Source: Candidatus Iainarchaeum sp. (lineage in GTDB: Archaea; Iainarchaeota; Iainarchaeia; Iainarchaeales; JAFCCW01). Taken from it: a stretch of DNA of 13,441 nt. Every line of letters begins with the position of its first letter. Position 1 is the first letter of the stretch. The notes below the pieces were generated by a model. That model was not told where the DNA came from. It ran no database searches and saw nothing but the letters and a program-made list of their open reading frames with translations. The position numbers and the translations under genes are program-made. Positions 1 to 13,283 of the stretch are shown one piece after another. The stretch is from NCBI GenBank assembly GCA_017609985.1, contig JAFCCW010000020.1, positions 1 through 13,441 on the forward strand, in the 5' to 3' direction.

Positions 1-954
1 TTCGGCTACGACAAAAAAGGAAAAGCCCTGCGCGCAAAGCAATTAAATGCAGAAGGAGCAATGGCTGCACTGCTTTCAAAGGCTCTTAAACCAAACCTTG
101 TTCAGACAGGAGAGGAAACACCAGCAATAGTTCACGGCGGAGCATTTGCAAACATTGCTTTTGGAACATCAACAGCAGTTGCAACAGAGCTTGCGCTGAA
201 GAAAGCAAATTATGTTGTGCAGGAATCAGGTTTTGGCTCAGACCTTGGATTTGAAAAATTCTGCAATATCTACTGCAGACAGACAGGTTTCAGAATTTCA
301 GCAGTTGTCATAGTTGCGACTTTGAGGTCACTTGAAGAGCAGGGAATTGAAAACCTGCAAAGGCATTTAGAGATTGTAAGAGGCTTTGGATTTGAGCCGA
401 TTGTTGCCCTGAACAGGTTCAAGAAAGACAGCAAATCAAAGCTTGAAGAATTGGTTAGTGTGATTGAAGAGCTTGGAGCCAAGGCAGTTATTGCAGATCC
501 GTTTCACAGCGGGGGAGAAGGATGCATTGAATTAGCAAAAGCTGTTGTGAAAGAAACAGGGAAAAAATCCAAAAAGCCAGAAAAGCCAAAATATACTTAT
601 CCTGCAAACACGCCTGTAAAAAAATCAATTGAAGCCGTTGCAAAAAAAGTTTATGGGGCAGGCTCTGTTTCGTTTTCAAAGAAAGCAGAGAAAAGCATTA
701 AGCTGCTTGAAAAAAACAAGCTTGACAAGATGCCTGTCTGCATGGCTAAGACGCAGTACTCGTTCACCGGCGACGGGAAAAGAAAAGGAGCTCCAGACGG
801 ATTTGGGTTAAGAGTTGACGATGTGTCAGCCGCAGCAGGAGCTGGATTCATTGTGGCGAGATGCGGAAACATTATGCCCCTGCCCGGCCTGCCGGAAAAA
901 CCAACTGCGGAAAGAATTGAAATAAATGGAAAGGGGAAAGTAAGTGGGATTTGA
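1..954 (+). CDS. fhs: Formate--tetrahydrofolate ligase (FTHFS), 5'-truncated by the window edge
   Basis: Frame 1 is open from base 1 (FGYDKKGKALRAKQLNAEGAMAALL...). Fhs motifs KPNLVQT, HGGAFANIAFG, ESGFGSDLGFEKF, PVCMAKTQYSF, AGAGFIV and MPLPGLP are present. The ATG at 61 is internal. Confidence 0.96.
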   Translation, partial: FGYDKKGKALRAKQLNAEGAMAALLSKALKPNLVQTGEETPAIVHGGAFANIAFGTSTAVATELALKKANYVVQESGFGSDLGFEKFCNIYCRQTGFRISAVVIVATLRSLEEQGIENLQRHLEIVRGFGFEPIVALNRFKKDSKSKLEELVSVIEELGAKAVIADPFHSGGEGCIELAKAVVKETGKKSKKPEKPKYTYPANTPVKKSIEAVAKKVYGAGSVSFSKKAEKSIKLLEKNKLDKMPVCMAKTQYSFTGDGKRKGAPDGFGLRVDDVSAAAGAGFIVARCGNIMPLPGLPEKPTAERIEINGKGKVSGI

Positions 955-955
955 G

Positions 956-996
956 CGAACATTTAAATGAAGTTGTTGCATACTTTTATCGGTGGG
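956..996 (+). promoter_or_regulatory. Putative archaeal-type promoter (BRE-like CGAAC + TATA-like TTTAAAT) and SD-like GGTGGG for gcvT
   Basis: cgaac at 956-960, tttaaat at 962-968 about 30 nt before ATG 998, ggtggg at 991-996. Confidence 0.5.
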
Positions 997-997
997 C

Positions 998-2092
998 ATG
1001 GGAGAAAAAACTCCATTGTATGAATGGCACAAGTCTGCTGGCGCACAGGTTATTGACTTCGGCGGATGGGATATGCCTGTCTATTACTCTACTCCGATTG
1101 AAGAACACGAATGCATTCGCTCTTCTGTCGGACTGTTTGATGTCTCTCATATGGGGGAAATCTGGATTGAGGGAAAAGACGCGCTAGCAGTCGTGCAGAA
1201 AGCAGTGAGCAGGGATATTTCAAAAACAGCTGTGGGAAAAATGGACCTGTGCGTGATGTGCAACGAGCAGGGCGGAATCATGGACGACCTCACAGTCTAC
1301 AAATTCTCCGAAGAAAAAATGTTGCTTGTCGTGAACGCGGGAACCGCAGGCAAGGACTTTGCTCAGCTTGAGGGAATTGCAAAGGGAACAGGAGCAAACG
1401 TGAAACTGTCAAACAAGACAATGGAAACAGGAAAGATTGATGTGCAGGGGCAGAAAGCAGAAGAGGTTTTGCAGAAGCTGACCAAGATTGAGCTTGGAAA
1501 AATTGGATTTTACAGATTTAAGGAAGGAAAAGTAAACGACAAGGAAGCAATTGTCTCGCGCTCTGGTTATACTGGAGAAGACGGCTTTGAAATTTACTGC
1601 TTGTGGAAGGACACGCAGGAAATTTGGGAAAGATTGATTGAAGCTGGCGCGGAAGCAGGGATTAAACCATGCGGTCTCGGAGCAAGGGATATGCTCAGGC
1701 TGGAATCAGGCTACATGCTGTACGGCAACGACATTGACGAAGAACACACGCCATATGAAGGGGTATATGGCTGGGTTGTTGATTTAAACAAGGAAGACTT
1801 TGTTGGCAGAGAATCTCTTGCAGGACAGAGGGAGAAAGGAATCAGCAAAAAGCTGGTCGGATTTGAAATGAAGGAGAGGGGAATCGCAAGGCATGGCTAC
1901 AAGATTTTTAGAGGCAAGGAAGAGATTGGAGAGGTTACTTCAGGAAGCTTTTCTCCAACTCTTGGAAAGAACATCGGCATGGCTTACGTTGGCAATGAAT
2001 TTAAGGAAATTGGAACAGAAATTGAAGTGGAAATCAGAGAACAAAGAGTTAAGGCAGAGGTTGTAAAAATGCCTTTTTACAAGAGGGAATAA
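998..2092 (+). CDS. gcvT: Glycine cleavage system aminomethyltransferase (T protein)
   Basis: KTPLYEWH, FGGWDMP, GLFDVSHMGE, SRSGYTGEDGFEI, GLGARDMLRLESG, GEVTSGSFSPTL and terminal PFY. Start is ATG 998 or GTG 992. Confidence 0.97.
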   Translation: MGEKTPLYEWHKSAGAQVIDFGGWDMPVYYSTPIEEHECIRSSVGLFDVSHMGEIWIEGKDALAVVQKAVSRDISKTAVGKMDLCVMCNEQGGIMDDLTVYKFSEEKMLLVVNAGTAGKDFAQLEGIAKGTGANVKLSNKTMETGKIDVQGQKAEEVLQKLTKIELGKIGFYRFKEGKVNDKEAIVSRSGYTGEDGFEIYCLWKDTQEIWERLIEAGAEAGIKPCGLGARDMLRLESGYMLYGNDIDEEHTPYEGVYGWVVDLNKEDFVGRESLAGQREKGISKKLVGFEMKERGIARHGYKIFRGKEEIGEVTSGSFSPTLGKNIGMAYVGNEFKEIGTEIEVEIREQRVKAEVVKMPFYKRE

Positions 2093-2094
2093 GA

Positions 2095-2574
2095 ATGCCA
2101 AAAAAACCATACTCAAAACCAGAAATGTCAAGAAAAGAACCAGTGCACAGACACCCCAGTGCAAAGAGTTCAGTCCAAGAGTTTGCTGTTGGAGGAAAAA
2201 AAGTGATAAGAAAAGTCTTCAAAAAAAAGTGGGGATTGGACGCGGGAAAAATGCAGGCAAATGCGCATGAAAGATTTTTAGAATTTGAAAATAGTCATTG
2301 TGTTATCAGGCCTGCAAAACCCATAGCAGCAAAAGGAAAAGTTTTGCTAATGGAAAAAGCTGAAGGGATTCCGCTAGAAGACATGATTTCAGGTGAAGGT
2401 CCAGACCAAGAAGAAATTTCTAAGCACAGAAACGAATTTATGCGAAATGTTTATAGAAACAGGGAAGTAAGAGACTTTATATCGAAAAATATTAACCGAA
2501 GAGAGGCACAAGCAAATGTTTCAAAGCGCCCAGACGGAAAATTTTTGATAACAGTGTATGATATAGAACAATAA
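2095..2574 (+). CDS. Hypothetical protein, degenerate minimal protein-kinase-like (RIO/Bud32-like) fold
   Basis: The 159-aa ORF fills the gcvT-gcvH gap (2 nt and 11 nt spacers). Segments VIRK, PAKPIAAKGKVLLMEKAEGIPL, QANV and DGKFLITVYDIEQ resemble the kinase beta3 Lys, hinge, catalytic-loop Asn and DFG regions. Fold call was made by eye. Confidence 0.65.
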   Translation: MPKKPYSKPEMSRKEPVHRHPSAKSSVQEFAVGGKKVIRKVFKKKWGLDAGKMQANAHERFLEFENSHCVIRPAKPIAAKGKVLLMEKAEGIPLEDMISGEGPDQEEISKHRNEFMRNVYRNREVRDFISKNINRREAQANVSKRPDGKFLITVYDIEQ

Positions 2575-2582
2575 GAGGTGAT
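2575..2582 (+). promoter_or_regulatory. Shine-Dalgarno GAGGTGAT for gcvH
   Basis: GAGGTGAT lies just upstream of ATG 2586 and is complementary to the 16S rRNA 3' AUCACCUC. This form is common in archaea. Confidence 0.75.
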
Positions 2583-2585
2583 TTA

Positions 2586-2987
2586 ATGACAGAAGAAAGC
2601 AAGGTGTTGGATGACAGAAAGTACACAAAAGAGCACGAATGGGTAAAGATTGAAAATGGGATTGGCACGATTGGGATATCCGACTATGCACAGCACGCGC
2701 TCACAGACGTTGTCTATGCAGAGCTTCCAAAGGAAGGAGAGAAGGTTGAGGCAATGGGAAAGCTTGCTGTTCTTGAAAGCGTTAAGAGTGTCAGTGATGT
2801 TTATGCTCCTGCAAGCGGAGAAGTTGTTGAAGTAAACAAAGCACTAGAGGAAACTCCCGGGCTGATAAACAAGAGTCCATTTGAAGAAGGATGGATTGCA
2901 AAAATCAAGGTAATTGATGAAGCAGAACTCGACAATCTCATGGGTGCAGAAGAGTACAAGAAATTTTTATCAGAGCAGGAGCATTAG
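2586..2987 (+). CDS. gcvH: Glycine cleavage system H protein (lipoyl carrier)
   Basis: YTKEHEWV, GISDYAQHALTDVVY, lipoyl-lysine motif ESVKSVSD, PASGEVVEVN, INKSPFEEGWI. Confidence 0.98.
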   Translation: MTEESKVLDDRKYTKEHEWVKIENGIGTIGISDYAQHALTDVVYAELPKEGEKVEAMGKLAVLESVKSVSDVYAPASGEVVEVNKALEETPGLINKSPFEEGWIAKIKVIDEAELDNLMGAEEYKKFLSEQEH

Positions 2988-2997
2988 GTGAGTGGAA

Positions 2998-4284
2998 ATG
3001 AACTTCATTCCAACCAATGAAAGCAAGAGAAAAGAAATGCTGAAGGAAACAGGAATTGAAAGTATTAAGGAATTGTTCAAGGATGTTCCTGAAAAAGCCT
3101 ATATAGACGGCTGTCTTAATCTCCCAAAAGGTTTAAGCGAGAGGGAACTTGTTTCAGAAATTTCAAAACTGGCAGTAGAAAATGCTCATGCGGGAACAAG
3201 CCCGTGCTTTCTTGGAGCTGGCGCATACAATCACTTCTGCCCCGCAGTAGTGCCTGCACTAATTGGAAGAAGCGAATTTTATACCGCTTACACTCCTTAT
3301 CAGGCAGAAGCAAGCCAGGGAATGCTTCAGGCAATCTATGAATTCCAGACCTGGGCGTGTCTCTTGACCGGAATGGATTTAGCTAATGCAAGCATGTACG
3401 ATGCATCCACAGCTCTTGCAGAATCAATGTTTATGTCAAAGAATTTAACTGGAAAAAACAAGGCAATTGTTTCAAAACATGTTCACCCTCACTACAGACA
3501 GGTTCTTGAAACATATGCTTGGGCGCACGGAATGGAACTTATTGGAACAGAAGAGCCAGAAAAAGAAGTTGATGAAAAAACAGCTTGTGTGATTGTGCAG
3601 AATCCAAATTTTCTTGGGCAAATTGAAAAATTAAAAGAACTAGGGACTGTTGCGCACAGCAAAGGAGCACTTCTTGTTGTGTGCGTTGGAGACTCAACAT
3701 CGCTTGGAGCAATTGAAAACCCAGGGCAGGAAGGAGCAGACATTGCTGTTGGAGACTGCCAGGCTTTTGGAATTCCTCTCTGGTTTGGAGGACCGCACGC
3801 TGGTTTTATGACTACAAAAAAAGAACATATGAGACATATTCCGGGACGACTTGTTGGAAGAACTGTGGACGAAGAAGGAAAAACAGGATTTATTCTTACA
3901 CTTCAGGCAAGAGAACAGCACATAAGAAGAGAGAGAGCAGAAAGCAATATTTGCACTAATGCTGCGCTAACTGCTTTGTGGGCAACTGTGTGGCTGGCAA
4001 GTCTGGGAGAAGATGGCTTGAAAAAGCTTGCTGAAGAAAACATGGAGGCTGCGAAAAAAGCAAGCAAGGAACTAGACCTTGAATTTGAAGAAAACTTTTA
4101 CAACGAGTTTGTCGTAAAAGTGAATAACAAAGAAGACGTGAAGCAAAAGCTAGCAGACGCAGGAGTGATTGCGCCTCTTGACTTGGAAGAATTTTATCCA
4201 GAACTAAAAAATCATCTGCTTGTGTGCGTAACTGAAATGAATTCAGACAAAGAAATTGAAATGTTGAAGAAGGTGTTGAAATGA
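2998..4284 (+). CDS. gcvPA: Glycine dehydrogenase (decarboxylating) P protein subunit 1
   Basis: [62 protein letters not shown] 2998 is preferred over GTG 2992 because SD AGGTGA lies at 2986-2991. Confidence 0.97.
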
Positions 4285-5627
4285 GCAAGCTGTTATTTGA
4301 AAAGGGACTGAATTTGAGCGAACCAGAAATAGTAAGGCATTATACAAATCTTTCAAGAAACAATTTTGGGGTGGACTCTCATTTTTATCCACTTGGAAGC
4401 TGCACTATGAAGTATAGCCCGAAAGTTAATGAAAGTGTTTCAGTGCTTGACGGGTTTGCAAAAGCTCATCCAATGCAGGAACAAAAAGCTAGCCAGGGTT
4501 GTCTTCAATTAATGTTCGAGCTAGAACAACAGTTATGTGAAATAACTGGTTTTTCTGGATTCACTCTTCAGCCGGCAGCAGGAGCACACGGAGAGCTTGC
4601 AGGAATGATGATTATAAAAAAACATTTTGAAGAAAAAGGAGAAGGAAACAAAAGGAAAAAAGTAATAATTCCTGATTCAAGCCACGGAACAAATCCCGCG
4701 TCGCTTCAGCTATGCGGTTTTGAAGCAATTGAAATCAAAAGCAACAGCGAAGGAGATATTTCCCTTGACAAACTGAAAAAAGAAATGAGTGAAGAGGTTG
4801 CAGGAATAATGGTCACCAACCCAAACACTCTAGGTTTATTTGAAAAAGATATAACAGAAGTTTGCAAAATAGTTCATGAAAAAGGCGGGCTTGTTTACAT
4901 TGACGGAGCAAACATGAATGCAATGCTTGGAGTGTGCAGGCCAGCAGAACTCGGAGCAGACGTAATGCACTTGAATTTGCACAAAACATTTTCTACTCCT
5001 CACGGGGGAGGAGGCCCAGGCTCAGGACCAGTTGGAGTAACAAAAGAGCTGGAACAGTTTTTGCCAAATCCCAGAGTTGTAAAAAATGGAGAAGACTATT
5101 GTTTAGATACTTCTTCGGAAAAGTCTATTGGAAGAGTCAAAGCATTTTATGGAAATTTTGGAGTGCTGGTAAAAGCTTTTGCTTACATCAAGGCTCTTGG
5201 TTCAGATGGATTAAAGAATGCTGGAGAGAGTGCAGTGCTCAATGCAAACTATCTGAAAGAAAAATTGAAGAAACACTACAAGCTTCCTTATGACAGAGTT
5301 TGCCAACACGAGTTTGTGCTAAGTGATGAGGGAATGCCCAACGGAGTAACCACTGGAGACTTGGCAAAGAGACTTCTTGACTATGGAATTCACGCTCCAA
5401 CAATTTACTTTCCACTTATTGTTCATGGAGCAATAATGATTGAACCAACAGAAACAGAGAGCAAGGAGACGCTTGACTGGTTTGTTGAAACAATGATTAA
5501 GATAAAAAAGGAAGCCGAGGAAAACCCTGAACTAGTGAAGGAAGCACCTCACTCTCTTTCTGTAAAAAAGCTTGATGCAGTCAAGGCAGCAAGGGAGCCT
5601 GATTTGAGATGGATTCCAAACAAATGA
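4281..5627 (+). CDS. gcvPB: Glycine dehydrogenase (decarboxylating) P protein subunit 2, PLP-binding
   Basis: [43 protein letters not shown]-lysine motif [29 protein letters not shown] overlap with the gcvPA stop. Confidence 0.97.
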
Positions 5628-6493
5628 GAAAACCTGACTGGCTAAAGGTAAAGATTCCCTCAGGCAAGAAATTTAATTCTGTCAGAAATGCAATAAAAAA
5701 GCATGCCTTGCACACTGTCTGCGAAGAAGCATTATGCCCCAACCGAGCAGAATGCTGGGGGAAACAGACAGCTACTTTTATGATATTGGGAGATGTTTGC
5801 ACTAGAAATTGTGGTTTTTGCTCCATTAAAAGTGGAAGAAAAGGCAGTGAAGTAAACAAAAACGAGCCAGAAGAACTTGCAGCCGCAGTGAAAGAACTTG
5901 GGTTAGAATATGCTGTAGTAACTTCTGTTGACAGAGATGATTTAGATGATTTGGGAGCAGGACACTTCGCTGAGTGCATCAAGACAGTGAAGAAAGAAAA
6001 CCACAAGGCAATGGTTGAAGTGCTTACTCCTGACTTTCAGGGAAAAAAAGATTTAATTGAGTGTGTTGTGAAAGCAAAGCCAGATGTGTTTGCACACAAT
6101 ATTGAAACAGTGAAAGAATTAGAGCAAGTGAGAGATTCAAGAGCAAGTTATGACATATCACTCAAGGTGTTAAAGATGGTTAAGGAAATTGATGAAAAAA
6201 TTTTCACAAAGAGCTCGATAATGCTTGGATTGGGAGAACGCAGGGAGCAGTTACTGAGGGCAATGAATGACTTGAGAAAAGTCGGTTGTGACTTTCTTGT
6301 GCTAAGCCAGTATCTTCAGCCAACCAAACAACAACTGCCAGTAAAAAGATTTGCGGAACCAAGCGAGTTCAGAGAACTTAAAAAAACTGCTTTGGAAAAG
6401 GGATTTAGGTTTGTTGTCAGCGAACCCCTTGCACGCACGTCATATCATGCTGGAGACTATTTTTCAGAGAAACAAAAGCCCAAAAACAGCTGA
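5624..6493 (+). CDS. lipA: Lipoyl synthase (radical SAM, classical LipA type)
   Basis: RKPDWLK, auxiliary cluster [12 protein letters not shown] (CX4CX5C), radical [40 protein letters not shown] 5624 gives an ATGA overlap with the gcvPB stop; ATG 5609 is the alternative. Confidence 0.97.
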
Positions 6494-6796
6494 AACAAGG
6501 TTCATTGCAAATGATATTTTCAATGCACTGGAATTGAATTTGGAAGAATAAAAAAATTTGCTGATTAAAACTGCTTCAATAAAAACAATTGCCAGCTCTC
6601 CAACAAGCCAAGCAATAAGATAGAGAGAATAAAAAAACGGGAGAGCTGTCCAGAAAAGAGACAAGGAAAAAAGATTAATCAAAAGGAGAAAGAACAGTTC
6701 TTTTTGCAAATCCTTTCTAAGAAGAAAGTGAAGTATTGGAAACTCTAGGCTATTGGTCAAAACATATGCAATTATAAATTCCTGAAGAAACATCAT
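6464..6796 (-). CDS. Small integral membrane protein (about 4 TM), unknown function
   Basis: 110 aa, almost entirely hydrophobic, with intramembrane polar residues (TNSLE, IN, GELAIVFIE, MNLVS). ATGA coupling to the upstream gene. The 3' end overlaps lipA by 30 nt. Confidence 0.75.
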   Translation of the reverse strand: MMFLQEFIIAYVLTNSLEFPILHFLLRKDLQKELFFLLLINLFSLSLFWTALPFFYSLYLIAWLVGELAIVFIEAVLISKFFYSSKFNSSALKISFAMNLVSAVFGLLFL

Positions 6797-7314
6797 GTCT
6801 GCCTTTTTCTAAGGAAAAGTGCCCAGACAATCAAGCCCGCAATTACTAAAAAAACAGGAACTCCAATTAAAAGCAAGGGACTTATTGAATTATCAGCATC
6901 TGATTTGTTTGTTTTCACAACTAAGTCCATGCTTCCTGAACCTGGATTAAAAGAGCCTACTTCAAAACTTGTTTCGCCTGCCTGCAAATCAATCGCTGAA
7001 GAAACAATACTTTCCTGAACAAGCGCATCGCGGTCTACTCCAGAAATAGTTTCAGGATTTTTTATCTCCGACAGTAACTGCTTTGGAACTGCATAAATCT
7101 GTATGTGTGTGTTAAGCTTGTACACAAATACTTCTCCTGAAACAACCTCCAGATTGTCAGGCCAGATATTTCCACTGTAATAAAACTGGTAATCTGGAAA
7201 GTCTTCAGCATTTGAAATAGTGAAAGAAAAACTCGGGCTTGGACCAATGTCAGCAAAGGCTATTGAAAAGCAGGACAATAAAACAAGCAAAACCAAAGCG
7301 TATTTTTTTGTCAT
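6793..7314 (-). CDS. Exported surface protein with signal peptide and C-terminal membrane anchor
   Basis: MTKKYALVLLVLLSCFSIAFA|DIGP signal peptide with an AxA cleavage site, acidic beta-rich body, and C-terminal TM helix plus RKRQT tail. ATG 7314 is preferred over TTG 7323. Confidence 0.8.
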   Translation of the reverse strand: MTKKYALVLLVLLSCFSIAFADIGPSPSFSFTISNAEDFPDYQFYYSGNIWPDNLEVVSGEVFVYKLNTHIQIYAVPKQLLSEIKNPETISGVDRDALVQESIVSSAIDLQAGETSFEVGSFNPGSGSMDLVVKTNKSDADNSISPLLLIGVPVFLVIAGLIVWALFLRKRQT

Positions 7315-7340
7315 AGATGACAAAACAAGAGACTTTGCTC

Positions 7341-7356
7341 TATTTATACTTTTCTT
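7341..7356 (-). promoter_or_regulatory. BRE/TATA promoter (GAAAAG-TATAAATA) for the surface/membrane gene pair
   Basis: The minus strand reads gaaaagTATAAATA, with the TATA at 7348-7341, 27 nt from ATG 7314. This fits a near-leaderless archaeal transcript. Confidence 0.65.
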
Positions 7357-7392
7357 TTTCCTAAAAAAATATATTTCAGCAAACTAAATCAG

Positions 7393-7400
7393 TTTATTAA
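7393..7400 (+). promoter_or_regulatory. TATA-like box (TTTATTAA) for lplB-lplA
   Basis: TTTATTAA ends 25 nt before ATG 7425 and no SD is visible, consistent with leaderless initiation. Confidence 0.5.
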
Positions 7401-7424
7401 ATCTATCGCAGTAAAGAATTTTCT

Positions 7425-7730
7425 ATGCAGGGACAGGTTATTTACAAAGTGCCGGGCGGAAAATTGTTAAGAGTCAGAGTTGATTTTGAAGAAGACATTA
7501 TTGCAGGATTAGAGCTTAAAGGAGACTTTTTTGCCCACCCAGAAGAATCAATTGAACTAATTGAACAGTCCCTTATTGGCGCAATCATTGGCCCTGAGAT
7601 TGAGGAAATTCTTGAAACTCTAATTGAAGAAAACCAGATAGAGCTTTACGGAGTTGACGTTAACTCAATTGTTACGGCAATTCATATGGCAAGAGAATGC
7701 GGTGAAACACGTTGGAGTTCAGGTTCCTGA
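7425..7730 (+). CDS. lplB: Lipoate-protein ligase accessory subunit (stand-alone LplA C-terminal domain, LplB/Lpl-C)
   Basis: KVPGGKLLRV and GDFFAHPEE..IE..L.G are typical of the lipoate ligase C-terminal domain. It lies directly upstream of the catalytic subunit. Confidence 0.85.
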   Translation: MQGQVIYKVPGGKLLRVRVDFEEDIIAGLELKGDFFAHPEESIELIEQSLIGAIIGPEIEEILETLIEENQIELYGVDVNSIVTAIHMARECGETRWSSGS

Positions 7731-8467
7731 AACATCCTGCACAGGATGGTTTCACAAACATGGCAATCGATGAAGCGATTGCTCAAACTGTTTCAAAAAC
7801 AGGCAAGCCAACAATTAGATTTTATTCCTGGAAGCCAGCGGCTGTGTCAATTGGTTATTTTCAAGGAATGAAACAAGAAGTAAATCTTGAAGAATGCAGA
7901 AATCAGAAAATAGATGCTGTGAGAAGACTGACCGGCGGGGGAGCAGTCTTTCACGAAGAAGAGCTTACATACAGTTTCTCCTGTCCCATTGAAAGCAGAA
8001 TTGTTTCAGATAACATACTTGAAAGCTATAAAAAAATCTGCGGAGCACTAGTGAATGGATTTTCAGAGATGGGTTTGAAAGCAGAGTTTGCTCCGCTGAA
8101 CGATGTTGTTGCTGAAGGCAAGAAAATTTCAGGAAATGCACAGACAAGACGATTCGAAGCAGTGCTACAGCACGGAACTATACTGCTCAAGGTTGATGTG
8201 GAAAAAATGTTTTCAATTCTCAGAGTTCCAGATGAAAAAATAAAGGACAAGCTTGTGAAAAGCGTCAAGCAAAGAGTTACTTCTCTTGAACAATTGCTGG
8301 AAAGAAATGTTTCCTTTGAAGAAACAGCAAAGGCAATGAAGCAAGGTTTTGAACAAGAGTTTGAAGCAAAGCTAGTTGAAGGAAGTTTGTCAGAAGAAGA
8401 GAAACAGCTGGCAGGAAAAGTGAAAGAAGAAAGATTTTCAAAAGAAGAATGGAACTTTAAGAGATGA
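7712..8467 (+). CDS. lplA: Lipoate/octanoate-protein ligase catalytic subunit (LplA/Lpl-N)
   Basis: NMAIDEA, VSIGYFQ, RRLTGGGAVFH, NDV, KKISGNAQ, LQHGTIL, EWNFKR. TTG start with SD GGTGA at 7701-7705. Confidence 0.92.
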   Translation: MEFRFLKHPAQDGFTNMAIDEAIAQTVSKTGKPTIRFYSWKPAAVSIGYFQGMKQEVNLEECRNQKIDAVRRLTGGGAVFHEEELTYSFSCPIESRIVSDNILESYKKICGALVNGFSEMGLKAEFAPLNDVVAEGKKISGNAQTRRFEAVLQHGTILLKVDVEKMFSILRVPDEKIKDKLVKSVKQRVTSLEQLLERNVSFEETAKAMKQGFEQEFEAKLVEGSLSEEEKQLAGKVKEERFSKEEWNFKR

Positions 8468-8470
8468 AAG

Positions 8471-8821
8471 TTAAAGAAGTTCCTTAGGTCTTGTTTCTTC
8501 TTTGAGTTCTCTAAAAATGTCTTCTCTTACAGAAGCAGGAAGCTTAATTTTATTCAGGTGCGTTAAAGCTTCTTCAGCACGCCTTTCTTCCAGCAAGCCT
8601 TTTATAGATCTCCTAGCAGAAGCCTTGCGTTCCGCTAATTGTTCGAAAGTCATCTTGTTTTCTCTAAGCCATCTGTCTAATTCAAGTGCCTTTTCTTGCA
8701 TATCTCTAAGCTCAACTCTTCTTTTGTAAGCTGGAATTCTGCACAAAAGCTTGTGAACACGCTTCTTAGCCTTAACTTTTGCAAGTCTTAGTCTCTGTGC
8801 AATTGATAAATTCAACTTCAT
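8471..8821 (-). CDS. Hypothetical basic, helical protein
   Basis: 116-aa ORF filling the gap between lplA and the upstream minus-strand gene. It has a K/R-rich N-terminus and no recognisable motif. Confidence 0.6.
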   Translation of the reverse strand: MKLNLSIAQRLRLAKVKAKKRVHKLLCRIPAYKRRVELRDMQEKALELDRWLRENKMTFEQLAERKASARRSIKGLLEERRAEEALTHLNKIKLPASVREDIFRELKEETRPKELL

Positions 8822-8829
8822 TGAAAAAC

Positions 8830-9165
8830 CTAGCTGATATGCTGTTTTGGAAATGGAACATTAATATTTGAAGAAGAAGATGCTTGCTCTCTGAAATCAT
8901 CATAGTTTTTGAGAGCCTGCTCTCCCTTCTTTCCTTCAAGAATTTTTATTATTTTCATTCTTGGAGCTGCTGAGCCACTTGCTGGCCTGTAATCAACCAA
9001 GACCACATCTTTCTTCTTCAGCCTGTCACACAGTTTTGAGTGAACTGAAAGAGTGATTGTTTTTTCATCCCACATTTTGCAGGTTGCCTGTACTCCGTTG
9101 TCTCCAGAAAAAACATTCTTTTCATCAGGTCTGAAAATTTCAAGAACTATTCCCACATGAAACAT
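8830..9165 (-). CDS. Hypothetical protein, possible OB-fold-like beta-barrel
   Basis: ATG 9165 lies 1 nt after the folD stop, with SD GGAGGGA at 9176-9170. Globular-looking sequence (MFHVGIVLEIF, MWDE, KKDVVLVDYRP, KIIKIL). Confidence 0.75.
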   Translation of the reverse strand: MFHVGIVLEIFRPDEKNVFSGDNGVQATCKMWDEKTITLSVHSKLCDRLKKKDVVLVDYRPASGSAAPRMKIIKILEGKKGEQALKNYDDFREQASSSSNINVPFPKQHIS

Positions 9166-9166
9166 T

Positions 9167-10015
9167 TTATCCCTCCATTTGAAGCTTTGCAGCATTCAAA
9201 GTATTTTTCATTAAGCAAGCAACTGTCATTGGACCCACTCCGCCAGGAACAGGAGTGTATTTTGAGGATTTTTTCTGGGCTTCGGGAGAAATATCCCCAA
9301 AAACCTTTTTTCCCTCTCGGATTATTCCAACATCGATTAGAACACTGCCTTCCTTGATCATTGATTCTTTAACTAAGTGCTTTACTCCAGTTGCGCTGAC
9401 AACAACATCAGCTTTTTTTGAAAAATCTTCAAGGTTTTTTGTAAACTTATGGCACACTGAAACAGTTGCGTCCCTGTTCAAGAGCATTAGTGCAAGAGGT
9501 TTGCCAACAACAACAGTGTGACCTATTATGCAGACATTTTTTCCCCTCCAGCTTACGCCAGCGTGCTCTGCCAGCTCCACGATTCCTTTTGGAGTGCAAG
9601 CTGCCAAAAGTTCGTTTCCTTCAAAAAGTTTTCCAAGAGTTTCAGGAGAAAAACCATCAACATCTTTTTCAGGAGAGATTGAAGAAATAACTTCCTGTTC
9701 ATTGATTTGTTTTGGAAGAGGAAGCTGAACAAGAATTCCATGAATTCTCTTGTTTGCATTAAGCTCTCTGACCTTTGCAATAATCTCTTCTTGTGACGCT
9801 CTCGAGCTGAAATAATGCTGTTCAGAATAAATTCCTGTTTCCTCACACGCCTGTTGTTTTTTTGAAACATAGATTTCGGAAGCAGGGTCTTTTCCCACAA
9901 GGATTACTGCAAGACCAGGGGGAAGACTGTGCTTTTTTTCAAAAGCCTCCGTAGCCTTCTTTGTTTTAACCAGTATCTTTTTGGCAAGACTGTTTCCATT
10001 AATTTTTTCAGCCAT
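9167..10015 (-). CDS. folD: Bifunctional methylene-THF dehydrogenase / methenyl-THF cyclohydrolase
   Basis: LAVILVG.DPAS..YVSKK, GILVQLPLP, KDVDG, CTPKG, VGKP, DVGI, TPVPGGVGPMTVACL..N. Start is ATG 10015, just downstream of the glyA stop. Confidence 0.97.
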   Translation of the reverse strand: MAEKINGNSLAKKILVKTKKATEAFEKKHSLPPGLAVILVGKDPASEIYVSKKQQACEETGIYSEQHYFSSRASQEEIIAKVRELNANKRIHGILVQLPLPKQINEQEVISSISPEKDVDGFSPETLGKLFEGNELLAACTPKGIVELAEHAGVSWRGKNVCIIGHTVVVGKPLALMLLNRDATVSVCHKFTKNLEDFSKKADVVVSATGVKHLVKESMIKEGSVLIDVGIIREGKKVFGDISPEAQKKSSKYTPVPGGVGPMTVACLMKNTLNAAKLQMEG

Positions 10016-10020
10016 AAGCT

Positions 10021-11274
10021 TCACTTGTAGAACGGGAACTGTTTGCAAAATTCTCTGACGTCTCCACGGACTTTTTCCAGAGCAGAGTCATTTTCCGGGT
10101 CACTAAGCACTTGCGAAATAAACTTTCCAACTTCGTCCATGTGAGTTTCCTTCATCCCCCTTGTTGCAAGAACTGGCGTGCCAATTCTTATTCCTGAAGG
10201 TTCCCAAGGCGTGCCTGGGTCGTAAGGGATTGTGTTCTTGTTGCAGTAAATTTCTGCCTTTGCAAGAGCTATTGCTGCTGTCTTTCCATTAATTCCCTTG
10301 TTTCTGACATCAACAAGCATTAAGTGATTGTCTGTTCCTCCTGAAACAAGCCTTAGTCCCTCGGAAGTGAGAGTGTCAGCAAGAGCTTTTGAGTTCTTTA
10401 CAATCTGGCTTGCGTATTCTTTGAAACTTGGTTCAAGAGCCTCCTTAAAAGCAACAGCCTTTGCAGCAGTAATGTGGTCATGAGGACCGCCCTGCAGGCC
10501 AGGAAAAACTGCTTTGTCAATTGCTTTTGCATGCTCTTCCTTGCACATTATCATTGCGCTCCTTGGACCCCGCAGTGTCTTGTGAGTTGTGGTTGTAACA
10601 ACATCAAAATAGGGCACTGGATTTTCATGAGCCCCCCCAGCACAAAGACCGGCAATGTGAGCAATGTCTGCACAACAGTAAATTCCAAGATCGTCACAAA
10701 TTTCTCTGAAAGCCTTGAAATCTATTTCTCGCGGATAAGCAGTGAAACCGGAGAGAAGAAGCTTTGGTTTTTCTTCCTGAGCCATCTTCTTGATTGCATC
10801 ATAGTCAAGCATCTCTGTTTCCTTATCAACACCGTAGGCAATCGGTTTGTAAAGCTGTCCTGAAAAGTTTACCGGAGAACCATGTGTCAGGTGACCGCCC
10901 ATGCTCAAGTCCATTCCCATGAATTTGTCTCCTACTTCAAGCAAGGCAAAATACATTGCCATGTTTGCGGGAGAGCCGGACAGAGACTGAACATTAACAT
11001 GTTCTGCCCCAAAAAGTTCTTTTGCTCTGCTGATTGCAAGGTCTTCAATTGTGTCAATTATCTCGTTTCCAGCATAATATCTTTTGTGAGAGTAACCTTC
11101 AGAGTATTTGTTTGTGGGAATGCTCCCCATTGCTTCGAGAACAGCCTGTGAAACAAGGTTCTCGGAAGGAATCAGTTCAATTCCGTTCATCTGCCGTTCC
11201 TTCTCTGCCTGAATCGCGTTGTAAATTTCTTCATCGTATTCTTTTAAAGCATTCAAATGCATTTCATACTCCAC
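10021..11274 (-). CDS. glyA: Serine hydroxymethyltransferase (bacterial-type)
   Basis: LIPSEN, NKYSEGY, RYYAG, NVQSLSGSPAN, GGHLTHG, DIAHIAGL, PLP-lysine motif TTTTHKTLRGPR, FPGLQGGP, GGTDNHL, SGIRIGT. Start is GTG 11274 (SD GGGGTG at 11287-11282) or ATG 11262. Confidence 0.98.
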   Translation of the reverse strand: MEYEMHLNALKEYDEEIYNAIQAEKERQMNGIELIPSENLVSQAVLEAMGSIPTNKYSEGYSHKRYYAGNEIIDTIEDLAISRAKELFGAEHVNVQSLSGSPANMAMYFALLEVGDKFMGMDLSMGGHLTHGSPVNFSGQLYKPIAYGVDKETEMLDYDAIKKMAQEEKPKLLLSGFTAYPREIDFKAFREICDDLGIYCCADIAHIAGLCAGGAHENPVPYFDVVTTTTHKTLRGPRSAMIMCKEEHAKAIDKAVFPGLQGGPHDHITAAKAVAFKEALEPSFKEYASQIVKNSKALADTLTSEGLRLVSGGTDNHLMLVDVRNKGINGKTAAIALAKAEIYCNKNTIPYDPGTPWEPSGIRIGTPVLATRGMKETHMDEVGKFISQVLSDPENDSALEKVRGDVREFCKQFPFYK

Positions 11275-11322
11275 AACAAAACACCCCCATATGGATTGAA
11301 ACAATAGGAATAAGCGTTAACT

Positions 11323-11338
11323 TCTTTAAATTGTTTCG
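11323..11338 (-). promoter_or_regulatory. BRE/TATA promoter (CGAAACAA-TTTAAAGA) for glyA-folD
   Basis: The minus strand reads accgaaacaaTTTAAAGA, leaving room for a short leader that contains the SD. Confidence 0.55.
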
Positions 11339-11350
11339 GTAATCAAAACA

Positions 11351-11410
11351 GTTTGAATCAGTTTCAATCATTTCAAATTATTCCGAATTATTCTAAATCA
11401 TTTCAAAGCA
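11351..11410. repeat. Imperfect tandem 10-bp repeat, 6 units, consensus TTTCAAATCA
   Basis: gtttgaatca/gtttcaatca/tttcaaatta/ttccgaatta/ttctaaatca/tttcaaagca in exact 10-nt register in the folC-glyA spacer. The last unit overlaps the folC stop. Confidence 0.8.
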
Positions 11411-12650
11411 TTTCGCCTATGAAGTAAATAGAGCCTGTTGCAACAACTATTCCGCGCTCTCCAGCCTGCTTTTTTGCTTCTTCAAAAGCTTTTTCCGGAG
11501 TTGAAAACAGCTCTGTGCCAACACCGTGTTTTTTGAATTCCTCTGAAATTTTTTTCGAATCAACGCTCTTGAACTTTGCCTTGCTGACAAAAGCTTTTTC
11601 TGCAAGTGGAGCAAGAAGCTTTATTGTTGGCTCAATCTTCCAGTCATAGGACAAGCCAAAAACCAGAAAAACTTTTTTTCCCGGAAAAAGCTGTGAAAGC
11701 ATTTTGACAAGCGCGTTGATGCCGTGCGGATTGTGAGCAGAATCAACAATTGTCAAAGGCTTTCGCTCAACAATCTCGGTTCTGGCACTCCACTTAACAT
11801 TAAGCAAGCCTTTGCGAATGTCCTTTTCAAGAACCCCAAGCAAGCGCGCAGCAGCAAGAGCAGTGCAGGCATTTTCCACCTGGTGCCAGCCGATTAAAGG
11901 AATTTTCAGGTTCTCAAATTTTTCTTCCCCGATGAAAGCCTCAAACTCCATTCGATTGGAAGAGTCAAAATTAATAAAATCCTGGCTAACATAATCTGCA
12001 GAAGGAAAGAGCTCAGCTCCCTTGATTTTTGCAACCTGGGTAATAACCTTCAAAGCTTCTTCTTTCTGGGGGGAAATCACAACTTTGCAGCCAGTTTTGA
12101 TAATTCCAGCTTTCTCAAACGCGATTTTCTCAATCCTGTTTCCAAGAGCATGCATGTGGTCAAAGTCAATTGGAGTGATTATTGCAATTTCCGGCTTGAC
12201 AATGTTTGTAGCATCAAGCCTTCCCCCCAGTCCAACTTCCACAACAGCATACTCAACACCCTGCTCTTTGAAGTACTGAAATGCGAGAAGGGAAACAAAC
12301 TCGAAATAAGTCAAATTGATGGAATGCTGTTCGTCAACCTGCTTTATTCTTTCAGCAATGCGAGCAAGCTCTTCATAGGGCGCAGGCTTCCAGTCAACGC
12401 GAATGCGCTCGTTGAATTCCTTAAGATGAGGTGAAGTGAGCAAGCCAGTTTTCTTTCCTGAAACAATAAGCATTGACTCAAGCATTGCCGCAGTGCTTCC
12501 TTTTCCATTCGTACCGGCAACATGAACTGTTTTGTAAGCAAACTGGGGATTTCCAAGAAACAGAGCAGCTTTTTCCACTCGCTCAAGACCAAGACTGCTT
12601 CCCCGAGAATGAAGACTTTCAAGAAACTTAAGAAATTCTTCCTTGTTCAT
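11403..12650 (-). CDS. folC: Folylpolyglutamate synthase / dihydrofolate synthase
   Basis: HVAGTNGKGST, TSPHL..FNERI, EVGLGGRLDATN, DHMHALG, EKAGIIK, DSAHN, TGSIYFIGE. ATG 12650 (MNKEEFLKFL) is preferred over ATG 12695. Confidence 0.96.
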   Translation of the reverse strand: MNKEEFLKFLESLHSRGSSLGLERVEKAALFLGNPQFAYKTVHVAGTNGKGSTAAMLESMLIVSGKKTGLLTSPHLKEFNERIRVDWKPAPYEELARIAERIKQVDEQHSINLTYFEFVSLLAFQYFKEQGVEYAVVEVGLGGRLDATNIVKPEIAIITPIDFDHMHALGNRIEKIAFEKAGIIKTGCKVVISPQKEEALKVITQVAKIKGAELFPSADYVSQDFINFDSSNRMEFEAFIGEEKFENLKIPLIGWHQVENACTALAAARLLGVLEKDIRKGLLNVKWSARTEIVERKPLTIVDSAHNPHGINALVKMLSQLFPGKKVFLVFGLSYDWKIEPTIKLLAPLAEKAFVSKAKFKSVDSKKISEEFKKHGVGTELFSTPEKAFEEAKKQAGERGIVVATGSIYFIGEML

Positions 12651-12665
12651 ATTAATTAGTGAAGC

Positions 12666-12680
12666 AAAAAGGTTTTTATT
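12666..12680. promoter_or_regulatory. AT-rich BRE/TATA-like element in the divergent folC / ORFan spacer
   Basis: aaaaaggTTTTTATT: the box at 12673-12680 is 25 nt from ATG 12705 (+) and 23 nt from ATG 12650 (-). Confidence 0.45.
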
Positions 12681-12704
12681 GTGTAAAGAACGCATTAGAA
12701 TTGC

Positions 12705-13283
12705 ATGGTTTTGAGATTTCTACGGAGAATCAGGGACAGGAACTCGAAAAAACCAAGAAAATCAGTAAAACAAAGAGAACCAGTTAGGCCTGAAGAACCA
12801 AGCAAAACAGTAAAACCGGAAGAACCAAGACAGCCAGTTGAACCTAAAGAACCAAGAAAGCCAACAAATCCAGGGTACTGGCAACATGGAGAAAAACCAA
12901 CTCCTGGCCACCCTGTGAAATCAATAAGACGCAATAGGTTAATCCCTGAATTCACGCCTGAAGACATGAGCAGAATTAGTGAGTCCGACAAAAACATTGT
13001 TCGGACAAAAAAATACGGGCTTGACTTTCTTCAGAGAGAAATCACAAGAAGAAGAAATGCCGGCTTTTTGCCTTACAGGGAATACACCAGCGCAGGAGAG
13101 TTTTCAATAAGGGATTTTCCAAAAGCAGGGGAAGGCAGGCTTATAATAAGGACTGGCTCCAAACACGCTGTCCAGCACGAAGAAAAAGGAACAAGGAATT
13201 TCAGAATGCGGGCAGTCACTTACAAAAACCAGCCAGCAAGACCGGAGTTCTACGACCTGATTTTTTTGGGCTCGGGGGGTTAA
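12705..13283 (+). CDS. Hypothetical basic protein with Pro/Glu/Lys-rich repeats
   Basis: 192-aa ORF with an Arg-rich N-terminus, 9-aa repeats and a C-terminal globular-looking region. It fills the folC-purE gap. Confidence 0.7.
   Translation: MVLRFLRRIRDRNSKKPRKSVKQREPVRPEEPSKTVKPEEPRQPVEPKEPRKPTNPGYWQHGEKPTPGHPVKSIRRNRLIPEFTPEDMSRISESDKNIVRTKKYGLDFLQREITRRRNAGFLPYREYTSAGEFSIRDFPKAGEGRLIIRTGSKHAVQHEEKGTRNFRMRAVTYKNQPARPEFYDLIFLGSGG
12774..12872 (+). repeat. In-frame 27-bp tandem repeat (about 3.7 units)
   Basis: REPVRPEEP / SKTVKPEEP / RQPVEPKEP / RKPTNP. The three full DNA units each end in aagaacca. Confidence 0.8.

Follow-up and report, generated by a model that had tools for sequence, protein, structure and literature searches.

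A compact purine gene supercluster in a small-genome archaeon, with probable supply of glycine and one-carbon units by folate enzymes

The stretch of DNA analysed here (the window) is a whole contig of 13,441 bp from an assembly of Candidatus Iainarchaeum sp. (GenBank GCA_017609985.1, contig JAFCCW010000020.1), referred to below as contig C6 of genome G000. It encodes formate--tetrahydrofolate ligase (Fhs), the T, H and P proteins of the glycine cleavage system (GCS), lipoyl synthase (LipA) and a probable two-subunit lipoate-protein ligase (LplA, LplB), FolD, serine hydroxymethyltransferase (GlyA) and a FolC-family protein. Our data suggest, with a probability of roughly 0.65, that this locus belongs to an anabolic purine supercluster of a small-genome archaeon, in which enzymes dependent on tetrahydrofolate (THF) supply one-carbon (C1) units and glycine. 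The evidence consists of the purine gene context, collinearity with relatives, a conserved gene core, the distribution of PurH, the C1 sinks encoded in the genome, and the outcome of searches in which no formate-linked genes of energy conservation or carbon fixation were found. A first-pass annotation had interpreted the same genes as a reductive glycine pathway or its ATP-yielding reverse. This interpretation is unsupported, given the pur genes around the locus and the lack of any detected formate dehydrogenase, FocA, PFL or GCS L-protein.

The purine and one-carbon supercluster

Both ends of C6 are broken inside genes, fhs at the start and purE at the end, and the missing halves were found on two other contigs of the assembly. 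The N-terminal half of fhs lies at C21:1-591 on the minus strand (profile positions 12-210), and the remainder of purE at C32:3-635. A probable purE next door had been named in the first-pass annotation; its open reading frame (ORF) starts near the window end, and PF00731 continues on C32. From fhs onward, C21 carries an ORF without known function, purN, purH, two small ORFs and the gene for 5-formyl-THF cyclo-ligase (5-FCL), and further on another ORF without known function, purM, purD, purF, purL (with a PurS-like N-terminus) and purQ. Downstream of purE, C32 carries purC and purB with a small methyltransferase-like ORF between them. According to Pfam, the purine genes purF, D, N, L/S/Q, M, E, C, B and H are all located on these two adjoining contigs. 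We infer a scaffold C21 (reversed)-C6-C32 from the complementary gene halves and from collinearity with the related genome G015. With the halves of fhs and purE and the pur genes on both sides, the locus would be a purine and C1 supercluster of about 30 kb, of which the window forms the central third.

The synthesis of inosine monophosphate (IMP) consumes one glycine and two formyl units, the latter delivered by 10-formyl-THF. In an anabolic setting GlyA would convert serine into glycine, the substrate of PurD, and 5,10-methylene-THF. FolD would oxidise methylene-THF, yielding 10-formyl-THF for PurN and PurH, and ThyX would draw on methylene-THF as well. GlyA and FolD would thereby yield glycine and C1 units in a ratio of 1:1, as opposed to the 1:2 needed per IMP. 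The GCS, operating oxidatively, may turn surplus glycine into further methylene-THF, and Fhs may load free formate onto THF at the expense of ATP, such that both could act as optional add-ons correcting the ratio of glycine to C1 units. LipA and LplA/LplB would serve only the lipoylation of GcvH, and FolC together with 5-FCL would retain and recycle folate that is probably salvaged rather than made. Observed here are the identities, adjacency, synteny and distribution of the genes, whereas the flux direction, the argument from stoichiometry and folate salvage are inferences.

Comparison across the order

In the glyA regions of 20 relatives, folD is present in 14, purN in 13 and purH in 11 cases, counted within the region fetched; in G019, the first glyA region ends just short of purN and purH. 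A glyA-folD-purN-purH core is widespread in the order, and the G000 locus elaborates it. The first-pass annotation had proposed an island assembled for energy conservation or C1 assimilation. The order-wide core, and the position of the window GlyA inside the clade of the order, argue against this.

The gene order of G015 is an orf192-like ORF, folC, glyA, folD, fhs, purN, purH, fcl, purM and purD, which is the G000 order minus the gcv block. G019 and G056 read folC-glyA-folD-lplA-lplB-lipA-gcvPB-PA-H-T, followed by purN-purH. In gene order, the G000 locus amounts to the union of these two arrangements. The series gcvT-H-PA-PB-(lipA)-lplB-lplA is a conserved module in relatives: the order gcvT-H-PA-PB is kept in the 16 GCS loci examined, with three cut by contig ends, and the lplB-lplA pair is kept next to the gcv genes (36-63% identity). 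The module lies between folD and purN in G019, G056, G077 and G109, as in G000, and stands alone in G015, G016, G024, G025, G027, G040, G051, G076 and G106. Flanks of the standalone module include genes for adenylate kinase, a PfkB kinase and S-adenosylhomocysteine (SAH) hydrolase, which are nucleotide and methyl-cycle genes.

Distribution was counted over 121 genomes of the order (G000 included) and permits a qualitative conclusion only, as related genomes are not independent of each other. PurH was found in 57 genomes, GcvP above its cut-off in 19 and Fhs in 11; Fhs and GcvP occur together in ten genomes of the order. PurH accompanies GcvP in 17 of 19 genomes versus 40 of the 102 others, and Fhs in 9 of 11 versus 48 of 110. 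This pattern suggests that the GCS and Fhs modules are optional add-ons, carried almost only by purine-prototrophic members of the order.

Identities among the Fhs sequences of the order (51-60%) are no higher than those to the one named bacterial Fhs among the loci compared, from a Parcubacteria locus (50-59%), and hence give no argument for either transfer or vertical descent.

Formate, energy and folate genes

The first-pass annotation had named genes by which its interpretation might be judged: formate dehydrogenase and a formate transporter, lpdA, serine dehydratase and glycine reductase, hydrogenase, and purN, purH and thyA. In a set of five genomes (G000, G015, the closed G016, G019 and G024) no molybdopterin-type formate dehydrogenase/oxidoreductase (PF00384) was found, with a control that matched 11 of 14 named genomes; NAD-dependent formate dehydrogenases of the 2-hydroxyacid dehydrogenase type were not searched for. 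FocA (PF01226), PFL (PF02901) and ThyA were likewise found in none of the five genomes, and their positive controls worked. Among the 26 genomes searched, none showed the Fe-S serine dehydratase (PF03313; pyridoxal phosphate-type serine dehydratases were not searched for) or the glycine reductase B component (PF09338; a weak negative, as no control matched either). MTHFR was found in two of the 26, not including G000.

The C1 sinks, on the other hand, are present. PurN and PurH are encoded adjacent to the C1 genes, on C21, and ThyX was found in all five genomes, in G000 on C25. A hydrogenase was found as well, in so far as a match to the [NiFe] large subunit occurs in four of the five genomes. 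The first-pass annotation had held that routine C1 supply for purines would be indicated if all C1 sinks of the genome were biosynthetic and formate and reducing equivalents could be neither supplied nor disposed of. This is largely the situation found for formate, and only partly that found for reductant, given the hydrogenase-like complex of G000.

This complex is encoded on C25 at about 141.9-147.4 kb (L157:2929-8442), as an Mrp-linked gene set resembling group-4 membrane-bound [NiFe]-hydrogenases of the Mbh/Ech type. It comprises two Mrp-type antiporter subunits, a Complex1_49kDa/NiFeSe large subunit, an Oxidored_q6 small subunit, a NuoH-like subunit and a 2x[4Fe-4S] protein of ferredoxin type. 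Among the ORFs scanned, none was recognisable as an NAD(P)H input. An ion-pumping complex in a genome (86.6% complete) without a detected ATP synthase is odd.

ATP synthase A/B subunits (PF00006) were found in 12 of the 26 genomes, and four of the five Fhs carriers among these possess them (G015, G016, G024 and G025). In three cases (G009:C21, G020:C9 and G025:C7) the A/B matches are split within frames of 1033-1092 aa, a pattern that would be expected of intein-containing subunits.

FolP (dihydropteroate synthase, PF00809) was found in one of the five genomes, G024, and not in G000, G015, G016 or G019. These four genomes nevertheless possess the full complement of folate-using enzymes as well as folC and 5-FCL, which suggests that folate is salvaged.

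The L-protein and the electron partner of the glycine cleavage system

In G000 the T, H, PA and PB components of the GCS are present; the L-protein (lpdA), which the first-pass annotation had also named, was not found. The best match to TIGR01350 reaches 71 bits versus a cut-off of 408.8, and is a thioredoxin-reductase-like Pyr_redox_2 protein of 317 aa on C27 that is devoid of the dimerisation domain. PF02852 has no match in G000, and tblastn with the L-like proteins of relatives found only this same gene on C27. Among G015, G016, G019, G024 and G025, the TIGR01350 cut-off is passed by G015 and G024 only. Across the order, a PF02852 protein was found in 8 of the 19 GcvP genomes and adjoins the gcv module in six of them; no match was found in the other 11, including G000 and the closed G016. 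Near the gcv genes of relatives without L-protein, the search for a substitute found only adenylate kinase, PfkB kinase, SAH hydrolase and a DUF63 protein.

Directly beside the gcv module of six relatives, including G005 and G034, stands a divergent L-protein-like flavoprotein of 435-474 aa with Pyr_redox_2 and Pyr_redox_dim domains (loci in Table 1), which scores 122-165 bits on TIGR01350 and hence below the cut-off. G000 and the closed G016 lack this flavoprotein.

No 2-oxoacid dehydrogenase E2 (PF00198) was found in G000 either, so that lipA and lplAB have GcvH, the only lipoyl protein detectable in this genome, as their sole detectable client. The first-pass annotation had pointed to a cofactor maturation of the locus' own, and lipA, lplB and lplA do stand beside gcvH. 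In the closed G016 an E2 gene is present at C1:747968-748669 (293 bits), yet searches for dihydrolipoamide dehydrogenase and PF02852 proteins found none there.

Source organism

The assembly G000 comprises 37 contigs with 1.16 Mb in total, at 86.6% completeness and 3% contamination. An archaeal small-subunit ribosomal RNA (RF01959, 1398 bits) is encoded on contig C37 together with the start of an archaeal large-subunit ribosomal RNA (RF02540), and a tRNA lies between the two. G000 is archaeal, in agreement with the first-pass annotation. No family-level relative of G000 was found. Its order, to which about nine in ten genomes of a 200-genome sample of the phylum belong, comprises at least 32 families, and its genomes measure 0.5-1.5 Mb, including closed ones of 0.8, 1.0 and 1.2 Mb. 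Core functions are patchy in the order (ATP synthase in 12/26, PurH in 57/121, FolP in 1/5 genomes). The earlier assignment to a reduced DPANN archaeon holds as far as the small genomes of the lineage are concerned; DPANN membership itself is plausible, not proven, from genome size, archaeal rRNA and patchy core metabolism.

One possibility to consider is that C6 stems from an ordinary bacterium and was mis-binned. Its enzymes belong to the THF type that is common among bacteria (in this the first-pass annotation was right), the window GlyA shares 52-59% identity with many bacterial GlyA sequences, and the GC content of C6 is 41.3%, compared to 35-42% across the contigs of the bin. Identity to the GlyA of relatives is 51-72%. 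In a quick tree (LG+G4) of 59 rows, reduced from 101 extracted rows by dropping 42 (only four rows each were kept of Nitrospirota, Cyanobacteriota, Poribacteria and Bacillota), the window GlyA forms a clade with 15 rows of the same order and three titled 'archaeon' (SH-aLRT 99). This clade is nested in a group of 28 rows which also holds five Bathyarchaeota rows (SH-aLRT 95). The partners of the gene halves at both ends of C6 are found within the bin, on C21 and C32. Relatives from the same order, among them the two-contig genome G015, show a collinear gene order; the closed G016 has the purH-purN-folD-glyA core in common. In addition, TATA-like A/T-rich boxes were read by eye about 20-35 nt upstream of the leaderless-looking first starts of gcvT, lplB, glyA, orf176 and orf192. 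Mis-binning is very unlikely on account of the split gene halves, the collinear relatives and the GlyA clade.

Alternative readings of the flux

The direction of flux is unreadable from sequence, on which we agree with the first-pass annotation, and this weighs against the anabolic reading together with several other points. PurH occurs without Fhs in 48 of 110 genomes and without GCS in many, so that neither add-on is required for purine synthesis. A source of formate for an anabolic Fhs was not found, as the searches returned no PFL, formate dehydrogenase or FocA. With no L-protein found, the cleavage system as encoded in G000 is, provisionally, incomplete in either direction. The search for ATP synthase A/B subunits (PF00006) found none in G000, and if this enzyme is truly absent, substrate-level ATP from a reversed Fhs would be valuable. 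No sequence overlap was found between the ends of C21, C6 and C32, the joins being based on gene halves and synteny. Finally, as G000 is 86.6% complete, each failure to find a gene in it is provisional.

In a catabolic reverse of the module, imported serine or glycine would be converted to 10-formyl-THF via GlyA, the cleavage system and FolD, and Fhs would release formate with a gain of ATP. All carbon-handling enzymes for this are present, its main support is the undetected ATP synthase of G000, and reducing power could leave the cell as H2 through the hydrogenase-like complex on C25. Excerpts of two papers (PMC5994134, PMC7495880) propose fermentative, H2-producing lifestyles for Woesearchaeota. 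However, the genes are situated among pur genes and not among fermentation genes, and the presence of ATP synthase in four of the five Fhs carriers of the 26 genomes indicates that Fhs is not a substitute confined to genomes without ATPase. No formate exporter (FocA) was found in the five genomes and no L-protein in G000 that would hand electrons to NAD, and the C25 complex has a module of ferredoxin type, while none of the ORFs scanned could be recognised as an NAD(P)H input. We regard this reverse as unlikely. Slightly less probable still, in our view, is a partial reductive glycine route operating anabolically, in which environmental formate would enter via Fhs and FolD, a reversed cleavage system would form glycine out of methylene-THF, CO2 and NH3, and GlyA would form serine. 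The core of Fhs, FolD, GcvT/H/P and GlyA is complete and clustered, and the route would supply an auxotroph with glycine, serine and purine carbon. It would also suit a reduced genome, and gaps in serine synthesis are reported for Woesearchaeota in an excerpt of PMC5994134. However, without a formate dehydrogenase, which was not found, there is no entry for CO2, and neither FocA nor an L-protein that would reduce lipoyl-H with NADH was found. As no Fe-S serine dehydratase or glycine reductase was detected (the latter search having no positive control), carbon could not reach central metabolism.

Relation to known systems

The anabolic supply of C1 units and glycine for purines resembles the THF-dependent coupling of C1 and purine metabolism in bacteria and THF-using archaea in its protein families, substrates and products, and in that the users PurN and PurH are adjacent. 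In G000, clustering is unusually complete, with pur, C1, cleavage and lipoylation genes within about 30 kb, and neither FolP nor the L-protein was detected. Folate C1 metabolism is noted for some subgroups of Woesearchaeota in an excerpt of PMC5994134, and expression of glyA in an excerpt of PMC11606122.

The reductive glycine pathway has reportedly been described for Desulfovibrio desulfuricans by Sanchez-Andrea and colleagues in 2020. G000 shares with it the clustered Fhs, FolD, GcvT/H/P and GlyA, but differs in that formate dehydrogenase, L-protein and Fe-S serine deaminase were not detected, nor was glycine reductase (again with no positive control), and in that the neighbours are purine genes. 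In the literature excerpts covered, with supplementary per-genome tables outside the scope, no assignment of the reductive glycine pathway or of a GCS-Fhs module to DPANN was found.

Lipoate-protein ligases with two subunits, LplA and LplB, are known as the Thermoplasma type in archaea. The G000 pair resembles them in that a small lplB, corresponding to the C-terminal domain, lies directly upstream of the catalytic lplA and overlaps it; the NCBIfam scores stay below their cut-offs (LplB 60.7 of 65, LplA_large 207 of 480). The pair is separated from lipA by two membrane ORFs without family on the opposite strand.

In the glycine fermenter Eubacterium acidaminophilum, the L-protein is replaced by a small thioredoxin-reductase-like flavoprotein. 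G000 likewise has a GCS with no classical dihydrolipoamide dehydrogenase detected, and encodes the 317-aa Pyr_redox_2 protein on C27. In contrast to E. acidaminophilum, no glycine reductase was detected, and the C27 gene is unlinked to the gcv genes. That the C27 flavoprotein might replace the L-protein in G000 is, by this analogy, pure conjecture. A farther-reaching idea, which appears improbable to us to much the same degree as the partial reductive route, is that the H-protein is recycled without a classical L-protein, with the C27 flavoprotein or the product of orf159 re-oxidising it, and that GCS, FolD and Fhs double as an ATP-yielding fermentation of serine or glycine. It would connect the GCS without classical L-protein in G000 and in relatives such as the closed G016 with the possibility that G000 also works without ATP synthase.

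Genes of the window and its surroundings

The genes of the window were called by scans with Pfam and NCBIfam profiles (Table 1), and these bear out the whole gene list of the first-pass annotation (fhs, gcvT/H/PA/PB, lipA, lplB/lplA, folD, glyA and folC). A motif scan found the lipoyl-lysine motif ESVKS at residue 64 of GcvH; TTHKT in GlyA; the P-loop GEGKTT in the N-terminal half of Fhs on C21; and, at residues 38 and 64 of LipA, the N-terminal auxiliary-cluster motif CX4CX5C and the radical-SAM motif CX3CX2C. These catalytic and cofactor motifs of GcvH, GlyA, LipA and Fhs are intact. GGTGA-like Shine-Dalgarno motifs were read by eye before the internal genes gcvH, gcvPA, gcvPB and lplA. Scans of the window found no Rfam families and no tRNAs.

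Table 1. Features of the window (positions on C6) and loci of the divergent L-protein-like flavoprotein in relatives
Feature	Position	Strand	Evidence and remarks
fhs, formate--tetrahydrofolate ligase, C-terminal 317 aa	1-954	+	PF01268 368 bits, profile 225-555 only; cut by contig start
gcvT, aminomethyltransferase (T-protein)	992-2092	+	PF01571 308 bits, PF08669 110 bits
orf159, basic ORFan in gcv operon	2095-2574	+	no Pfam/NCBIfam family
gcvH, lipoyl carrier H-protein	2586-2987	+	PF01597 157 bits
gcvPA, glycine dehydrogenase subunit 1	2992-4284	+	PF02347 415 bits
gcvPB, glycine dehydrogenase subunit 2	4281-5627	+	PF21478 104 bits, PF02347 52 bits; 63-70% identical to relatives
lipA, lipoyl synthase	5609-6493	+	PF04055, PF16881 (LIAS_N)
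orf110, small hydrophobic ORF	6464-6796	-	no family; hydropathy maximum 2.41
orf176, hydrophobic N- and C-terminal segments	6793-7323	-	no family; hydropathy
lplB, probable lipoate-protein ligase small subunit	7425-7730	+	NF053749 60.7 bits (cut-off 65); PF10437 23.5 (cut-off 24)
lplA, lipoate-protein ligase catalytic large subunit	7712-8467	+	PF21948 186 bits (meets cut-off); NF053750 207 (cut-off 480)
orf116, downstream of folD, same strand	8471-8821	-	no family at E <= 0.001; no homologue in relatives' loci
orf121, downstream of folD, same strand	8830-9195	-	no family; no homologue in relatives' loci
folD, methylene-THF dehydrogenase/methenyl-THF cyclohydrolase	9167-10048	-	PF02882 196 bits, PF00763 137 bits
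glyA, serine hydroxymethyltransferase	10021-11304	-	PF00464 524 bits
folC, folylpolyglutamate synthase/dihydrofolate synthase family	11403-12695	-	TIGR01499 370 bits; Mur_ligase_M, Mur_ligase_C
ORF without family	12695-12997	-	Pfam, NCBIfam at E <= 0.001
orf192, basic protein divergent from folC	12705-13283	+	no family; 42%-identical 53-aa stretch at syntenic position in G015
purE, first 24 codons	13368-13441	+	continues at C32:3-635; PF00731 positions 59-124 at C32 start
Divergent L-like flavoprotein, four relatives	L131:12581-13912, L136:2179-3510, L137:10749-12056, L138:2042-3349, L130:14303-15727		

Seven ORFs of the window, 100-192 aa in length, match no Pfam or NCBIfam family at E <= 0.001, and no function could be assigned to them from Pfam at E <= 5 or from NCBIfam. 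ESM Atlas searches of orf159 and orf192 gave no assignable function; for orf159 there is a weak lead to small kinase-like proteins (0.90-0.94). In tblastn searches with nine ORFs (six of the window, three of C21), no paralogues were found in G000, and the only match in relatives was the short syntenic one of orf192 in G015. The orf159 gene is wedged into the gcv operon, separated by 2 nt from gcvT upstream and by 11 nt from gcvH downstream; no homologue was found in the gcv operons of any relative examined or elsewhere in G000.

Past purB, C32 continues with unrelated genes for a Dam methylase, CysRS and a Na/H exchanger; carA and carB follow farther on. The DNA methyltransferase encoded directly past purB, at C32:4393-5283, is an N6-adenine enzyme of the D12 class. 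On C21, 14554-15693 encodes a MATCAP-family protein (microtubule-associated tyrosine carboxypeptidases, 174 bits) and 17467-17919 an ORF of 150 aa with matches to arrestin N- and C-domains.

Implications

All protein families of the locus are standard. Its particular traits are the compact supercluster and GCS and Fhs modules that behave as plug-ins. As a general point, a locus that combines Fhs, FolD, the cleavage system and GlyA does not by itself qualify as a reductive glycine pathway. With regard to the biology of this reduced, probably DPANN, order, a part of its members keeps full purine autonomy by means of a compact supercluster with plug-in modules (GCS with lipoylation, and Fhs). This pattern may be useful to predict the dependence of individual members on a host for nucleotides, folate and formate.

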